A DNA stretch of 8,342 nucleotides from a virus. Lineage: Duplodnaviria; Heunggongvirae; Uroviricota; Caudoviricetes. This document shows, piece by piece, positions 1-8,342 of the stretch. The first letter of the stretch is position 1. Every line of letters starts with the position of its first letter. Where the stretch lies: IMG/VR virus record IMGVR_UViG_2751185968_000009; one strand, written 5' to 3'. Position numbers and translations under genes: made by a program. The notes beneath the pieces are model-generated. The model was not told where the DNA came from, made no database searches, and saw only the letters and a list, made by a program, of their open reading frames with translations.

Positions 1-306
1 AAAGGTTCTCAGTATGTATCGCTGGCCTACACACAGCGGCTTAAGGAAGCCGGATTACTGGCATCAACAGGAAGTACAGGCGACTCGTATGACAACGCGA
101 TGGCGGAGAGCATCAATGGTCTTTACAAAGCGGAGGTAATACACCGTAAGAGCTGGAAAAACCGTGCAGAAGTGGAACTGGCCACACTCACGTGGGTGGA
201 CTGGTATAATAATCGACGATTGCTGGAAAGGCTGGGCCACATCCCTCCGGCAGAAGCAGAAAAAGCTTATTATGCTTCCATCGGAAACGATGATCTGGCA
301 GCCTGA
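1..306 (+). CDS. IS3-family (rve/DDE integrase-type) transposase, C-terminal fragment; 5-prime end lies outside the window
   Basis: Frame 1 is open from nt 1 to TGA at 304-306 and reads KGSQYVSLAYTQRLKEAGLLASTGSTGDSYDNAMAESINGLYKAEVIHRKSWKNRAEVELATLTWVDWYNNRRLLERLGHIPPAEAEKAYYASIGNDDLAA. The YDNAMAES...GLYKAE block is the conserved catalytic-Glu region at the C-terminus of IS3-family OrfB transposases. Exact IS name not determined. Confidence 0.8.
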   Translation, partial: KGSQYVSLAYTQRLKEAGLLASTGSTGDSYDNAMAESINGLYKAEVIHRKSWKNRAEVELATLTWVDWYNNRRLLERLGHIPPAEAEKAYYASIGNDDLAA

Positions 307-352
307 GTTCACAGATAAAACACTCTCCAGGAAACCCGGGGCGGTTCAGTAA
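1..352 (+). mobile_element. 3-prime part of an IS3-family insertion sequence; right terminal inverted repeat expected between about 307 and 400 but not mapped
   Basis: Transposase ORF ends at 306 and a phage gene starts at 401. The left end is outside the window, so the terminal inverted repeat cannot be defined by pairing. Confidence 0.45.
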
Positions 353-358
353 CTCATG

Positions 359-386
359 AGCCGCCTTTTGGGCGGCTTTGTTGTTT
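359..386 (+). terminator. Candidate rho-independent terminator between the transposase and J
   Basis: GCCGCC (360-365) pairs with GGCGGC (371-376) around a 5-nt loop TTTTG, followed by the T-rich run TTTGTTGTTT (377-386). Seen directly in the sequence. Confidence 0.4.
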
Positions 387-400
387 ATGGAGTGTGAGGA

Positions 401-3400
401 ATGGGTAAAGGAAGCAGTAAGGGGCATACCCCGCGCGAAGCGAAGGACAACCTGAAGTCCACGCAGCTGCTGAGTGTGATCGATGCCATCAGCGAAGGGC
501 CGGTTGAAGGTCCGGTGGATGGATTAAAAAGCGTGCTGCTGAACAGTACGCCGGTGCTGGACAGTGAGGGGAATACCAATATATCCGGCGTCACGGTGGT
601 GTTCCGGGCCGGTGAGCAGGAGCAGACACCGCCGGAGGGATTTGAATCCTCCGGCTCCGAGACGGTGCTGGGTACGGAAGTGAAGTACGACACGCCGATT
701 ACCCGGACCATCACGTCGGCAAACATCGACCGTCTGCGCTTTACCTTCGGTGTGCAGGCACTGGTGGAAACCACCTCAAAGGGGGACCGGAATCCGTCGG
801 AAGTCCGCCTGCTGGTTCAGATACAGCGTAATGGTGGCTGGGTGACGGAAAAAGACATCACCATTAAAGGCAAAACCACCTCACAGTATCTAGCATCGGT
901 GGTGGTGGGTAACCTGCCGCCGCGCCCGTTCAATATCCGGATGCGCAGGATGACGCCGGACAGCACCACAGACCAGCTGCAGAACAAAACGCTCTGGTCG
1001 TCATACACCGAAATCATCGATGTGAAACAGTGCTACCCGAACACGGCACTGGTCGGCGTACAGGTGGATTCGGAGCAGTTCGGCAGCCAGCAGGTGAGCC
1101 GTAATTATCATCTGCGCGGGCGTATTCTGCAGGTGCCGTCGAACTATAACCCGCAGACTCGGCAATACAGCGGTATCTGGGACGGAACGTTTAAGCCAGC
1201 ATACAGCAATAACATGGCCTGGTGTCTGTGGGATATGCTGACCCATCCACGCTACGGCATGGGGAAACGTCTTGGTGCGGCGGATGTGGACAAATGGGCG
1301 CTGTATGTCATCGGCCAGTACTGCGACCAGTCAGTGCCGGATGGCTTTGGTGGCACGGAGCCGCGCATCACCTGTAACGCTTACCTGACCACACAGCGTA
1401 AGGCGTGGGATGTGCTCAGTGATTTCTGTTCGGCGATGCGCTGTATGCCGGTATGGAACGGGCAGACGCTGACGTTCGTGCAGGACCGACCGTCGGATAA
1501 GGTGTGGACCTATAACCGCAGTAATGTGGTGATGCCGGATGATGGCGCGCCGTTCCGCTACAGCTTCAGCGCCCTGAAGGACCGCCATAATGCCGTTGAG
1601 GTGAACTGGATTGACCCGGATAACGGCTGGGAGACGGCGACAGAGCTTGTTGAAGATACGCAGGCCATTGCCCGTTACGGTCGTAACGTCACGAAGATGG
1701 ATGCCTTTGGCTGTACCAGCCGGGGGCAGGCACACCGCGCCGGGCTGTGGCTGATTAAAACGGAGCTGCTGGAAACGCAGACCGTGGACTTCAGCGTGGG
1801 TGCAGAAGGGCTTCGCCATGTACCGGGCGATGTCATTGAAATCTGTGATGATGACTATGCCGGTATCAGCATCGGCGGGCGCGTGCTGGCGGTGAACAGC
1901 CAGACGCGGACACTGACGCTCGACCGTGAAATCACGCTGCCATCCTCCGGCACCACGCTGATAAGCCTGGTTGACGGACAGGGGAATCCGGTCAGCGTGG
2001 AGGTCCAGTCCGTCACCGACGGCGTGAAGGTGAAAGTGAGCCGTGTTCCTGACGGCGTTGCCGAATACAGCGTGTGGGGGCTGAAGCTGCCGACGCTGCG
2101 CCAGCGCCTGTTCCGCTGCGTGAGTATCCGTGAGAACGATGGCGGCACGTATGCCATCACCGCCGTGCAGCATGTACCGGAAAAAGAAGCCATCGTGGAT
2201 AACGGGGCGCACTTTGACGCGACCAGAGCGGCACGGTGAATGGTGTCACGCCGCCAGCGGTGCAGCACCTGACTGCCGAAGTCACCGCAGACAGCGGGGA
2301 GTATCAGGTACTGGCCCGCTGGGACACGCCGAAGGTGGTGAAGGGCGTGAGCTTCCTGCTTCGCCTGACCGTGACAGCGGACGATGGCAGTGAGCGGCTG
2401 GTCAGCACGGCCCGGACGACGGAAACCACATACCGCTTCAGGCAGCTGGCGCTGGGGCGTTACATGTTGACGGTCCGGGCGGTAAATGCGTGGGGACAGC
2501 TGGGCGATCCGGCGTCGGTATCGTTCCGGATTGCCGCACCGGCAGCGCCGTCGCGGATTGAGCTGACGCCGGGCTATTTTCAGATAACCGCCACGCCGCA
2601 TCTTGCCGTTTATGACCCGACGGTACAGTTTGAGTTCTGGTTTTCGGAAAAGCGGATTACCGATATCAGGAAGGTTGAAACCACAGCGCGCTATCTTGGC
2701 ACGGGGCTGTACTGGATAGCCGCCAGTATCAATATCAAACCGGGCCATGATTATTATTTTTACGTTCGCAGTGTGAACACCGTTGGCAAATCGGCATTCG
2801 TGGAGGCTGTTGGTCAGCCGAGTGATGATGCATCCGGTTATCTGGATTTTTTCAAAGGCGAGATAGGGAAAACCCATCTGGCTCAGGAGCTGTGGACGCA
2901 GATTGATAACGGTCAGCTTGCGCCTGACCTGGCTGAAATCAGGACGTCCATTAAGGATGTCAGCAATGAAATCACGCAGACCGTCAATAAGAAACTGGAA
3001 GACCAGAGTGCGGCAATTCAGCAGATACAGAAGGTTCAGGTTGATACAAATAATAATCTGAACAGCATGTGGGCTGTGAAGCTGCAACAGATGAAGGACG
3101 GACGCCTTTATATTGCGGGTATCGGTGCCGGTATTGAGAATACGCCAGCAGGAATGCAGAGTCAGGTGCTGCTGGCGGCAGACAGGATTGCGATGATTAA
3201 TCCTGCGAATGGCAACACAAAGCCGATGTTTGTTGGTCAGGGCGATCAGATATTCATGAACGACGTGTTCCTGAAACGCCTGACGGCTCCCACCATTACC
3301 AGCGGCGGTAATCCTCCGGCATTTTCCCTGACACCGGACGGGCGGCTGACGGCGAAAAATGCCGATATTAGCGGTAACGTGAATGCGAACTCCGGGACGC

Positions 3401-3879
3401 TCAACAACGTCACGATTAACGAGAACTGTCGGGTTCTGGGAAAACTGTCCGCCAACCAGATTGAAGGCGATCTCGTTAAAACAGTGGGCAAAGCTTTCCC
3501 CCGGGACTCCCGTGCACCGGAGCGGTGGCCATCAGGGACCATTACCGTCAGGGTTTATGACGATCAGCCGTTTGACCGGCAAATTGTTATTCCGGCGGTG
3601 GCATTCAGTGGCGCTAAGCATGAGAGAGAGCATACTGATATTTACTCCTCATGCCGTCTGATAGTGCGGAAAAACGGTGCTGAAATTTATAACCGTACCG
3701 CGCTGGATAATACGCTGATTTACAGTGGCGTTATTGATATGCCTGCCGGTCACGGTCACATGACACTGGAGTTTTCGGTGTCAGCATGGCTGGTAAATAA
3801 CTGGTATCCCACAGCAAGTATCAGCGATTTGCTGGTTGTGGTGATGAAGAAAGCCACTACAGGCATCACGATTAGCTGA
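401..3879 (+). pseudogene. J: Tail tip / host-specificity protein J (lambda gpJ-like), interrupted by a frameshift near 2219-2223; present as two ORFs, 401..2239 and 2236..3879
   Basis: ORF 401..2239 (612 aa) begins MGKGSSKGHTPREAKDNLKSTQLLSVIDAISEGP and follows the lambda J N-terminal half as I recall it. ORF 2236..3879 (GTG start in the track) continues [36 protein letters not shown], the next part of J, in a different frame. GGAG at 389-392 sits about 9 nt upstream of ATG 401. Confidence 0.85.
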
Positions 3880-3897
3880 ATTTTATAACCCAGATAC

Positions 3898-3925
3898 GGG
3901 CACCAGAAATGGTGCCTTTTTTATT
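3898..3925 (+). terminator. Rho-independent terminator downstream of J
   Basis: GGGCACC (3898-3904) pairs with GGTGCC(T) (3911-3917) around the loop AGAAAT, followed by TTTTTTATT; it begins 19 nt after the J stop at 3877-3879. Confidence 0.6.
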
Positions 3926-3946
3926 GCAGAAAAGCGAGAGGTAATT

Positions 3947-4546
3947 ATGCGTAAATTATGTGCTGTTATTCTGTCCGCAGTAGTCTGGCTGGTTGCCGCT
4001 GGTATGCCAGCGAGCGCAGCAGAGCATCAGTCCACACTAAGCGCCGGGTATCTTCAGACCCATACTGATATGCCAGGCAGCGATGATCTGAACGGGATTA
4101 ACGTGAAATACCGTTATGAGTTTACGGACACGCTGGGGCTGGTGACGTCATTCAGTTATGCCAATGCCAAAGATGAGCAAAAAACGCATTACAGCGATAC
4201 CCGCTGGCATGAAGATTCCGTGCGTAACCGCTGGTTCAGCGTGATGGCGGGGCCGTCTGTGCGCGTGAATGAATGGTTCAGCGCGTATGCGATGGCGGGT
4301 GTGACTTACAGTCGTGTGTCGACTTTTTCCGGGGATTATCTCCGTGTAACTGACAGCAAGGGGAAAACGCACGATGTGCTGACCGGAAGTGATGACGGTC
4401 GCCACAGCAACACGTCTCTGGCGTGGGGGGCTGGCGTGCAGTTTAACCCGACCGAATCCGTGGCCATTGATATTGCTTATGAAGGCTCCGGCAGTGGTGA
4501 CTGGCGTACCAACAGTTTCATCGTTGGTGTCGGCTATAAATTCTGA
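3947..4546 (+). CDS. lom: Lom, Ail/Lom-family outer-membrane beta-barrel protein (prophage moron)
   Basis: 199-aa ORF with a signal peptide (MRKLCAVILSAVVWLVAAGMPASA, then AEH after an AXA site) and the C-terminal GVGYKF typical of outer-membrane beta-barrels. Blocks such as NGINVKYRYEFTDTLGLVTSFSY and SVAIDIAYEGSGSGDWRT match lambda Lom as I recall it. RBS GAGAGG at 3936-3941. Confidence 0.92.
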   Translation: MRKLCAVILSAVVWLVAAGMPASAAEHQSTLSAGYLQTHTDMPGSDDLNGINVKYRYEFTDTLGLVTSFSYANAKDEQKTHYSDTRWHEDSVRNRWFSVMAGPSVRVNEWFSAYAMAGVTYSRVSTFSGDYLRVTDSKGKTHDVLTGSDDGRHSNTSLAWGAGVQFNPTESVAIDIAYEGSGSGDWRTNSFIVGVGYKF

Positions 4547-4572
4547 TTAGCCAGGTAACACAGTGTTATGAC

Positions 4573-4600
4573 AGCCCGCCGGTTCAGGCGGGCTTTTTTG
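4573..4600 (+). terminator. Rho-independent terminator downstream of lom
   Basis: Perfect 8-bp stem AGCCCGCC (4573-4580) / GGCGGGCT (4587-4594), loop GGTTCA, then TTTTTT (4595-4600). Confidence 0.65.
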
Positions 4601-4610
4601 TGGGGGGAAT

Positions 4611-7259
4611 ATGGCAGTACTGATTTCAGGTGTACTGAAAGATGGTGCAGGTAAGCCGATACAAAACTGCACCATTCAGCTAAAGGCCAGGCGCAACAGC
4701 ACCACGGTGGTGGTGAACACAGTGGCCTCAGAAAATCCGGATGAAGCCGGGCGTTATACAATGGACGTCGAGTATGGTCAGTACAGCGTCAGTCTGTTGG
4801 TGGAGGGATTCCCGCCGTCACACGCCGGGATTATCACCGTATATGAGGACTCAAAGCCGGGCACACTGAATGATTTCCTCGGTGCAATGACGGAGGATGA
4901 TGTCCGGCCAGAGGCACTGCGCCGTTTTGAACTGATGGTGGAAGAGGTGGCGCGTAACGCGTCCGCAGTGGCACAGAACACGGCAGCCGCGAAGAAGTCA
5001 GCCAGCGATGCCCGCACATCAGCCCGTGAGGCGGCAACCCATGCGACTGATGCTGCAGGCTCAGCACGCGCAGCCAGCACGTCAGCCGGACAGGCCGCGT
5101 CGTCGGCTCAGTCAGCGTCTTCCAGCGCAGGAGCGGCATCAACAAAGGCCAGTGAAGCATCGAAAAGTGCTGCTGCTGCAGAGTCCTCAAAAAGCGCGGC
5201 AGCTACCAGTGCCAGTGCCGCGAAAACGTCAGAAACGAATGCGGCAGCGTCACAACAATCAGCAGCCACTTCTGCATCCACCGCGACCACGAAAGCGTCA
5301 GAAGCAGCCACTTCAGCACGGGATGCGTCGGCTTCAAAAGAGGCGGCAAAATCATCAGAAACGAACGCAGCCTCGAGCGCCAGCAGCGCAGCTTCCTCGG
5401 CAACGGCGGCAGCAAATTCTGCGAAGGCGGCAAAAACGTCCGAGACGAACGCCAGGTCTTCTGAAACGGCAGCGGGACAGAGCGCCTCAGCTGCGGCAGA
5501 CTCAAAAACAGCGGCTGCATTATCTGCCAGTGCCGCGTCAACAAGTGCCGGGCAGGCCTCAGCCAGTGCCACCGCCGCCGGAAAATCGGCAGAAAGTGCT
5601 GCATCGTCTGCTTCAACAGCCACAACGAAGGCTGGCGAAGCCGCTGTACAGGCCAGCGCAGCAGCGAGGTCTGCTTCCGCAGCGAAGACATCCGAGACGA
5701 ACGCGAAAGCGTCGGAAACCAGCGCAGAATCCTCAAAAACGGCTGCCGCATCGTCCGCCAGTTCGGCGGCGTCATCGGCATCATCTGCGTCTGCTTCAAA
5801 AGATGAGGCGACCAGACAGGCGTCAGCAGCAAAGGGCAGCGCCACGACGGCATCCACGAAGGCGACAGAGGCAGCTGGCAGTGCGACGGCGGCAGCTCAG
5901 AGCAAAAGTACGGCGGAATCCGCGGCAACGCGCGCTGAGACAGCGGCAAAACGGGCAGAGGATATTGCATCCGCCGTGGCGCTTGAGGATGCGAGCACGA
6001 CGAAAAAGGGGATAGTACAGCTCAGCAGTGCGACTAACAGCACTTCCGAGTCACTGGCGGCAACGCCAAAAGCCGTTAAGGCCGCGTATGAGCTGGCTAA
6101 CGGGAAATACACCGCACAGGATGCAACGACAGCACAGAAAGGGATAGTTCAGCTTAGCAACGCGACCAACAGCACATCTGAAATGCTGGCGGCAACGCCA
6201 AAGTCGGTAAAGGCAGCCTATGACCTTGCTAACGGGAAATATACTGCTCAGGACGCTACGACAGCACAAAAAGGAATTGTCCAGCTCAGTAGTGCAACCA
6301 ACAGCGCATCTGAAACGCTTGCCGCGACACCGAAAGCAGTGAAAGCAGCTAATGATAATGCGAATGGTCGGGTACCTTCTGCCCGTAAGGTGAATGGTAA
6401 GGCGCTTTCAGCGGATATAACACTGACGCCGAAAGATATTGGTACGCTTAACTCAACAACAATGTCATTCAGCGGTGGTGCTGGTTGGTTCAAATTAGCA
6501 ACGGTAACCATGCCACAGGCGAGTTCTGTTGTTTCAATTACGTTGATTGGTGGTGCGGGATTTAACGTGGGGTCACCTCAACAGGCAGGTATATCTGAAC
6601 TTGTTTTGCGTGCAGGTAATGGTAATCCGAAGGGGATTACTGGTGCTTTATGGCAGCGCACATCGACAGGGTTTACAAATTTTGCCTGGGTCAATACATC
6701 TGGTGATACTTACGATATTTACGTTGCAATCGGAAATTATGCGACTGGTGTAAATATTCAATGGGATTATACCAGTAATGCCAGCGTGACGATTCATACG
6801 TCACCAGCATATTCTGCTAATAAGCCGGAAGGGTTAACGGACGGTACAGTTTATTCACTCTATACGCCATCAGAGCAGTTTTATCCGCCTGGCGCACCAA
6901 TCCCGTGGCCATCAGATACCGTTCCGTCTGGCTATGCCCTGATGCAGGGGCAGACTTTTGACAAATCTGCATACCCGAAACTTGCAGCCGCTTATCCGTC
7001 AGGCGTGATCCCTGATATGCGTGGCTGGACGATTAAGGGCAAACCCGCCAGTGGTCGTGCCGTATTGTCTCAGGAACAGGACGGCATTAAATCGCACACC
7101 CACAGCGCCAGCGCATCCAGTACGGATTTGGGGACGAAAAACACATCGTCGTTTGATTACGGAACCAAATCCACGAATAACACCGGGGCGCATACGCACA
7201 GTCTGAGTGGCTCTACGGGGTCTGCCGGTGATCATACTCATGGTAATGGTATTCGTTGA
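4611..7259 (+). CDS. stf: Side tail fibre protein Stf (lambda Stf-like N-terminus, Ala/Ser-rich shaft, tail-collar motif); ends at an in-frame TGA that looks premature
   Basis: 882-aa ORF; the N-terminus [36 protein letters not shown]...[23 protein letters not shown] matches lambda Stf from memory. Contains the motif [48 protein letters not shown], typical of phage tail-collar domains. G-rich RBS at 4602-4607 before ATG 4611. Confidence 0.85.
4950..5990 (+). repeat. Low-complexity Ala/Ser/Thr-rich coding region within stf, with recurring AAKTSETNA-type motifs
   Basis: Stf residues about 115-460 are almost entirely A/S/T/K/E/Q. Motifs recur several times ([70 protein letters not shown]). The stop-poor GCN/TCN-rich DNA generates long spurious ORFs in other frames. 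Confidence 0.7.
5988..6383 (+). repeat. Three tandem in-frame 132-bp (44-aa) repeats within stf; third copy diverges in its 3-prime third
   Basis: The unit DA(S/T)T(T/A)(K/Q)KGIVQLS(S/N)ATNS(T/A)SE(S/M/T)LAATPK(A/S)VKAAY(E/D)LANGKYTAQ starts at 5988, 6120 and 6252. The KG codon pair sits at 6006-6011, 6138-6143 and 6270-6275, exactly 132 nt apart. Copies differ mainly at synonymous positions. Confidence 0.8.
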
Positions 7260-7586
7260 CCAGGAGGCGGCGGTTCTGCGTTAGCATTTTATGATGGCGG
7301 TGGGTTCACTTATGTCCAGGATTCACAGTATCAAGTAAGCCCGGGGACTTCTTCCCGTAGATCGTATTATCAACGTATTCAGACACAGTCAGCAGGTGCT
7401 CATACCCACTCGCTGTCTGGTACTGCAGCAAGTTCTGGCGCACATGCACATACTGTAGGTATTGGTGCGCATACGCACTCCGTTGCGATTGGTTCACATG
7501 GACACACCATCACCGTTAACGCTGCTGGTAACGCGGAAAACACCGTCAAAAACATCGCATTTAACTATATTGTGAGGCTTGCATAA
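7260..7586 (+). other. stf: In-frame continuation of stf beyond TGA 7257-7259, encoding the conserved tail-fibre C-terminus; no start codon of its own
   Basis: Codons 7260..7583 are open in the stf frame and read [108 protein letters not shown], ending at TAA 7584-7586. The last ~25 residues match the lambda Stf C-terminus as I recall it. No in-frame ATG/GTG/TTG with an RBS. Confidence 0.6.
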
Positions 7587-8170
7587 TGGCATTCAGAATG
7601 AGTGAACAAGCACGGACCATAAAAATTTATAATCTGCTGGCCGGAACTAATGAATTTATTGGTGAAGGTGACGCATATATTCCGCCTCATACAGGTCTGC
7701 CAGCAAACAGTACCGATATTGCACCACCAGATATTCCTGCTGGCTTTGTGGCTGTTTTCAACAGTGATGAGGCATCGTGGCATCTCGTTGAAGACCATCG
7801 GGGTAAAACGGTTTATGACGTAGCGTCAGGGGACGAGTTATTTATTTCTGAACTCGGTCCGTTACCGGAAAATGTTACCTGGTTATCGCCGGAAGGGGAG
7901 TTTCAGAAGTGGAACGGCACAGCCTGGGTGAAGGATACGGAAGCAGAAAAAATGTTCCGGATCCGGGAGGCGGAAGAAACAAAAAACAACCTGATGCAGG
8001 TAGCCAGTGAGCATATTGCGCCGCTTCAGGATGCTGCAGATCTGGAAATTGCAACGGAGGAAGAAACCTCATTGCTGGAAGCCTGGAAAAAGTATCGGGT
8101 GTTGCTGAACCGTGTTGATACATCAACTGCACCTGATATTGAGTGGCCTACGAACCCTGTCAGGGAGTAA
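7586..8170 (+). CDS. tfa: Tail fibre assembly protein Tfa (lambda Tfa-like chaperone)
   Basis: 194-aa [82 protein letters not shown]..., nearly residue-for-residue with lambda Tfa as I recall it. Its ATG (7586-7588) overlaps the TAA (7584-7586) of the stf frame as TAATG. Confidence 0.93.
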
Positions 8171-8184
8171 TCATTGGGATTATG

Positions 8185-8232
8185 CCGCAGCACGTCTTAA
8201 GCAAGAACGTGCTGCGGTTGGATGCTATTTTT
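8185..8232 (+). other. Perfect 11-bp inverted repeat with 11-nt spacer after tfa, followed by a T-tract; possible terminator or protein-binding palindrome
   Basis: CCGCAGCACGT (8185-8195) and ACGTGCTGCGG (8207-8217) are exact reverse complements; T6 run at 8227-8232 lies about 9 nt past the stem, which is atypical spacing for an intrinsic terminator. Confidence 0.35.
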
Positions 8233-8342
8233 TCCCTGAAGCGGAAAACATTACTACAGTACCTTGAACCTTGGTTTTAACATTCTCGAAATGCTCTGAG
8301 AGTATATGTGTTAAGCCTTCTTCGGAATCTTTTGTGTTTGAA

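Follow-up and report, generated by a model that had tools for sequence, protein, structure and literature searches.

Gene content of the window

The window, by which we mean the whole stretch of 8,342 nucleotides analysed here, carries the genes J, lom, stf and tfa of a lambda-like prophage. Related complete genomes have the block beside a disrupted ompW gene and the yciEFG-trp region of E. coli. The coordinates of the features are collected in Table 1.

Table 1. Features of the window and their coordinates
Feature	Position	Strand	Remarks
3' end of IS3-family insertion sequence	1..348	+	transposase C-terminus 1-306
gpJ tail-tip gene, split	401..3879	+	pieces 401-2239 and 2236-3879; 1-nt deletion at 2219
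lom (Ail/Lom outer-membrane protein), intact	3947..4546	+	Pfam Ail/Lom
truncated stf ORF, 882 aa	4611..7259	+	
premature opal stop TGA in stf	7257..7259	+	from G to A at 7259
orphaned 3' part of stf, 108 codons plus TAA	7260..7586	+	identical to intact alleles
tfa tail fibre assembly chaperone, 194 aa, intact	7586..8170	+	Caudo_TAP 1.3e-44

The fibre gene has the make-up of a lambdoid stf: an N-terminal domain, fibre repeats and a collar precede a needle with HxH motifs like that of T4 gp37, tfa comes directly after, and the genes stand in the order J, lom, stf, tfa. Pfam domain scores were taken on the intact allele, which equals the window sequence except for the stop codon described below; the matches are phage_tail_N (1.3e-71), three copies of Phage_fiber_2 (1.3e-51) and Collar (6.5e-12), with HxH fibre repeats as well. 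The truncated product encoded in the window keeps the prophage tail fibre N-terminal domain, an Ala/Ser-rich region, the three Phage_fiber_2 repeats, the collar domain and three HxH motifs. A Shine-Dalgarno-like motif for tfa, GAGG, is found at 7573-7576.

Some minor features of the block may be recorded here. The Phage_fiber_2 repeat, about 44 aa long and situated at approximately 5990-6390 of the window, has three copies here and in E. coli GZ04-0086 and four in UTI89, so that the fibre shaft is polymorphic in its number of repeats (Stf of 991 aa in GZ04-0086 vs 1035 aa in UTI89). Among RNA families, Rfam IS009 (RF02111) gives a full-length match at 7929-8127 on the plus strand, wholly inside the tfa coding sequence (223.8 bits vs a gathering threshold of 117). 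There are also sub-threshold isrG matches at 5195-5607 on the minus strand, opposite the Ala/Ser-rich part of stf (33.6 bits vs a gathering threshold of 100), and a weak Trp_leader match at 4519-4601, between lom and stf; the isrG and Trp_leader matches are probably chance or low-complexity effects.

An in-frame stop codon in stf

The stf reading frame that opens at 4611 runs for 882 codons and is closed by TGA at 7257-7259, which is codon 883 of 991, or 89% of the way along the gene. The base that follows, at 7260, is C (+4C in the numbering used for termination contexts). Beyond the stop, the same frame continues for 108 sense codons up to a TAA at 7584-7586, and the ATG of tfa at 7586 overlaps this original stf terminator as TAATG. 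The other two frames of 7260-7586 contain four and six stops. The sole in-frame start-like codon past the TGA is a GTG at 7572, only four codons ahead of the TAA, and because it lies so near the end, the downstream segment has no usable start.

A first-pass annotation of this DNA had drawn attention to the TGA followed by C, to the stop-free frame of 108 codons that reaches the tfa start and to the want of a start codon for it; the frame translation bears out each of these points, and all of the coordinates hold. It had also described further HxH boxes and a conserved tail-fibre end in the downstream segment. Seven HxH motifs can be counted in Stf, three upstream of the stop and four downstream, and the terminal residues do match the C-terminus of T4 gp37. 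The downstream 327 nt carry no further lesion; disabling ones there had been named by the annotation as telling against its proposal.

The segment 7260-7586 is base for base the same as in intact stf genes, the single G to A change at 7259 being the only exception. Judged by this identity, the open frame past the TGA is not a chance effect. With its frame interrupted at codon 883, the copy of stf in the window is a pseudogene by standard criteria. In intact Stf, the peptide that spans the lost residue reads ...GNGIRWPGGGGS....

Comparison with intact relatives

The nearest complete genome is that of E. coli GZ04-0086. When window positions 349-8342 (7,994 nt) are compared with positions 6001-13995 of the corresponding locus (L003), two differences appear: the G to A change at 7259, which converts TGG to TGA, and a deletion of 1 nt at 2219, inside J. 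The codon is TGG in GZ04-0086, UTI89 and IHE3034, and stf is annotated as a single intact protein in UTI89 (1035 aa) and GZ04-0086 (991 aa). The ancestral codon is thus TGG, for Trp883 of the 991-aa Stf. The first-pass annotation had supposed a single change from TGG (Trp) to TGA and had suggested an alignment with intact homologues as the way to check it; that alignment has Trp at the corresponding codon, and one G to A transition suffices.

Both of the differences from GZ04-0086 disable a gene, one by a frameshift and one by a nonsense codon, and the 7,994 nt contain no neutral change at all. This pattern is unexpected for random mutation and could hint either at selection against the tail genes or at problems of sequence quality.

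Among more distant Stf homologues, the Trp column is uninformative as to conservation. In the best 120 of 1043 hits it holds 16 W, 25 F, 5 Y and 50 gaps, in a tip loop that is hypervariable and poorly aligned; a clean match to the Trp is limited to Stf proteins of the same tip subtype and to T4 gp37.

Distribution of the TGA allele

A 61-nt query centred on the stop has 641 matching records, which belong to 638 of the 5,426 complete E. coli genomes. The TGA allele is in none of these records (0/641), and none is 100% identical to the query. The exact 41-mer with TGA likewise has zero matches in the GTDB representative genomes (one per species) and in the JGI metagenomes. In a control scan with a 41-mer in which the codon was left free, one E. 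albertii contig and 53 metagenome contigs were recovered, all of them with TGG. Together with three E. coli loci, these bring the tally to 57 loci with TGG, and TGA occurs only in L004.

A cluster lookup of the 882-aa Stf returned no record. By contig lookup, the exact 882-aa product is recorded in one draft assembly only, GCA_001906265.1, the contig of which overlaps the window by 5,285 nt and differs from it by one SNP elsewhere, at 3609. Given this difference, the assembly counts as a record of its own for the TGA allele, and since the stop is thus shared by two records, the change is probably real; on the distribution of these sequences it would be confined to one small lineage.

Position of the stop in the fibre tip

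The last 248 aa of Stf match residues 785-1026 of T4 gp37, for which a structure of the tip is available (PDB 2XGF), with E = 1.1e-83. Counted along the alignment with 2XGF, the lost Trp falls on gp37 W936, and gp37 H929, H931, Y932, E934, N937 and G938 are aligned likewise around it. The stop therefore stands on the codon equivalent to a residue described as functionally critical in the receptor-binding tip, where only aromatic substitutions are tolerated (PMC6957217). According to the same work, amber mutants at the neighbouring gp37 residues Y932 and G938 were isolated by plaque screening on suppressor-free and suppressor hosts, the needle holds seven histidine-coordinated iron sites, and domain D11 (882-1009) is inserted into domain D10 (811-881 plus 1010-1026) (PMC6957217).

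Projected onto this architecture, the truncated Stf would end at the apex of the tip. Missing from it would be the strand of the stem that returns from the apex, four of the seven HxH motifs that bind iron, and the strand with which the collar-like domain ends. The structure and genetics of T4 gp37 lead one to predict that such a product is almost certainly unable to form a working trimer. The case resembles T4 in that the C-terminus is homologous, the lost Trp corresponds to W936 and amber mutants were isolated at the nearby Y932 and G938. There are also differences. T4 is a myovirus with essential long fibres, whereas the side fibres of lambdoid phages are accessory, and Stf has a longer tip loop behind the Trp than gp37 has.

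Other lesions in the tail block

The deletion in J removes 1 nt at 2219, changing GACGGCGACC to GACGCGACC relative to GZ04-0086. The two resulting pieces match positions 1-609 and 612-1163 of the lambda_TipJ profile, and the stop of the first overlaps, as GTGA, the GTG with which the second begins. No listed genome has the deletion, and an exact lookup of the 612-aa N-terminal J fragment gave no record. Since it is seen in this window alone, the J deletion may be real decay or an error of assembly; in the latter case the picture of a decaying prophage around stf would be weaker.

At the upstream end of the window, the terminal repeat of the IS3-family element ends ...GCGGTTCA at 348 and directly borders prophage sequence, with 52 nt between it and the start codon of J. 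In the best-matching complete E. coli genomes that were listed, no such junction occurs. As the window begins within the IS, the element may be either a simple insertion or the mark of a deletion of phage genes farther upstream.

Interpretation of the stop

The first-pass annotation had offered two readings of the TGA, namely a very recent inactivating mutation and a stop that is read through at a low level, so that a minority of the fibres would be full-length. The first has gained ground, with the allele absent from the 641 complete-genome records, 53 metagenome contigs and one representative contig that share the flanking sequence, and with a J frameshift and an IS nearby. Readthrough may take place as a biochemical side effect, but nothing speaks for it as a function, the stop being unconserved and without a recoding element. 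We are therefore quite confident that the stop arose by recent inactivation of stf in a decaying prophage and is not a programmed readthrough signal.

The course of events may be pictured as follows. A spontaneous and recent G to A transition would have converted TGG (Trp883) to TGA, so that translation would end at codon 883 and the product would be left without most of the receptor-binding tip. The prophage would no longer need to make infectious particles and would be decaying neutrally, a setting suggested by the frameshifted J and the IS just upstream in the same tail block. Any readthrough by tRNA-Trp would then be an unselected background by-product. As an alternative to neutral decay, selection against side fibres is possible. 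The unscarred state of the downstream 327 nt would fit a very recent event, and it would also be expected if the segment were still under selection by way of readthrough.

Inactivation of this kind is already known, and the change is an ordinary pseudogenising mutation. In tail genes of E. coli prophages, point mutations, frameshifts and IS insertions build up in the same manner, and the present case is one more instance with no essential difference. It also adds a further example of the quick decay of lambdoid tail genes in a resident prophage. For annotation purposes, this copy of stf should be entered as a pseudogene with an internal stop, and not as two genes or as a recoding site.

Readthrough at UGA-C and other alternatives

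The alternative that fares best is a leaky stop with a biological effect. Here tRNA-Trp would read UGA-C at a low rate and a minority of particles would carry side fibres; function would then be lost only in part, or fibred and fibreless virions would be mixed as a form of bet-hedging. We consider this unlikely, although several observations speak for it. In bacteria, C at +4 is a weak termination context for UGA (PMC5289835, a secondary source), and stop-codon readthrough in E. coli takes place at 10^-3 to 10^-2 (PMC10570021). Since tRNA-Trp would put back the ancestral residue, readthrough by it would rebuild wild-type Stf, and both the downstream frame and tfa are intact. Fibreless variants of lambda are favoured in some settings (PMC2762979), which makes a mixed population conceivable.

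Against this, the source that describes +4C as weak also reports that misreading of UGA by tRNA-Trp in E. coli is most marked with A, not C, at +4 (PMC5289835); the first-pass claim that UGAC is a weak termination context is upheld by it. An extended nudL product of readthrough was seen with the weak RF2 of K-12 and was no longer visible with the RF2 of E. coli B, which is called more active (PMC5373646). The TGA is conserved nowhere else in the complete genomes, metagenomes and representative genomes that were searched. In the window itself neither a stimulatory RNA element (Rfam at E <= 1) nor a suppressor tRNA was found; the 80 nt from the stop onward fold no better than shuffled sequences (z = +0.58), and the window holds no tRNA gene of any kind. 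The fibre is trimeric, and full-length chains at a level of 0.1-1% would yield very few complete fibres. J is essential for the lambda tail tip, and given its frameshift in this window, infectious particles are not to be expected at all. On balance, it is very unlikely that readthrough restoring Stf matters biologically.

A sequencing or assembly error, in which case the true base at 7259 would be G and stf would be intact, has a small chance of being the right explanation. The two disabling and zero neutral changes relative to the nearest genome would fit such an error, as would a J deletion that is replicated nowhere else. Opposed to this are the identical TGA and 882-aa product in GCA_001906265.1, on a contig that differs from the window at 3609, and the nature of the change, since a G to A substitution outside a homopolymer would not be a typical platform error.

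One can go further than a merely leaky stop and regard the UGA-C allele as a natural leaky switch, with about 0.1-1% of Stf chains being wild type and an inducible phage releasing mostly fibreless particles accompanied by a few fibred ones, in a form of translational bet-hedging on host range. To us this seems far-fetched; if true, it presupposes that the J frameshift is an assembly error and that the rest of the prophage is intact. The preferred reading as a recent inactivating mutation has a practical side in this connection. Because background readthrough by tRNA-Trp would rebuild wild-type Stf, a stop on the codon equivalent to gp37 W936 would offer a convenient natural reporter of UGA-C leakiness in a wild E. 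coli background.

Programmed recoding of the UGA, with insertion of selenocysteine or by a readthrough site that evolved as in Qbeta coat/A1, can point to the in-frame codon and the long stretch of open frame behind it, but it has next to no chance of being correct, given that the site arose from a single private substitution, that all relatives encode Trp as TGG (57 loci with TGG vs one with TGA, and no TGA in 641 records), and that neither a SECIS nor any other recoding RNA is found near the stop in an Rfam search of the whole window at E <= 1, nor a stable hairpin after the UGA; the lack of TGA conservation effectively excludes it. In Qbeta coat/A1, low-level decoding of a UGA by tRNA-Trp yields a minor structural protein with a C-terminal extension. 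The two cases are alike in that a UGA lies in a structural gene of an E. coli phage. They differ in that the stop of Qbeta is fixed and required and both of its products are functional, whereas the stop in stf is private to one lineage and its short product is predicted to be non-functional.

Disrupted stf genes in lambda and in other strains

Loss of stf function has a well-known precedent in lambda itself. The laboratory strain of lambda is without a functional stf, and loss-of-function mutations in the gene arise easily and can be selected (PMC2762979). These mutants and the allele described here involve the same gene family, with Stf followed by tfa, and in both, one small mutation removes the C-terminal, receptor-binding part. 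The difference is that the lambda lesion is a frameshift in a propagating phage, whereas ours is a nonsense substitution in a resident prophage that has other lesions.

Broken copies of stf, of independent origin, are also seen in other strains. In IHE3034 the gene is frameshifted (L002 781-3887), and in SCPM-O-B-12142 it is interrupted by an IS3-family element (L059 7351-11771). The protein database likewise contains products of the frameshift type and an internal deletion that joins the N-terminal domain to the last ~124 residues (P0006, P0018, P0092 and P0107). Of the 1043 hits the best 120 were inspected, and truncated natural forms may occur among those ranked lower. P0107, with 43 member sequences, starts at an ATG that is out of frame and lies immediately ahead of the Trp codon in question; a further lesion very close to this site is thereby suggested.
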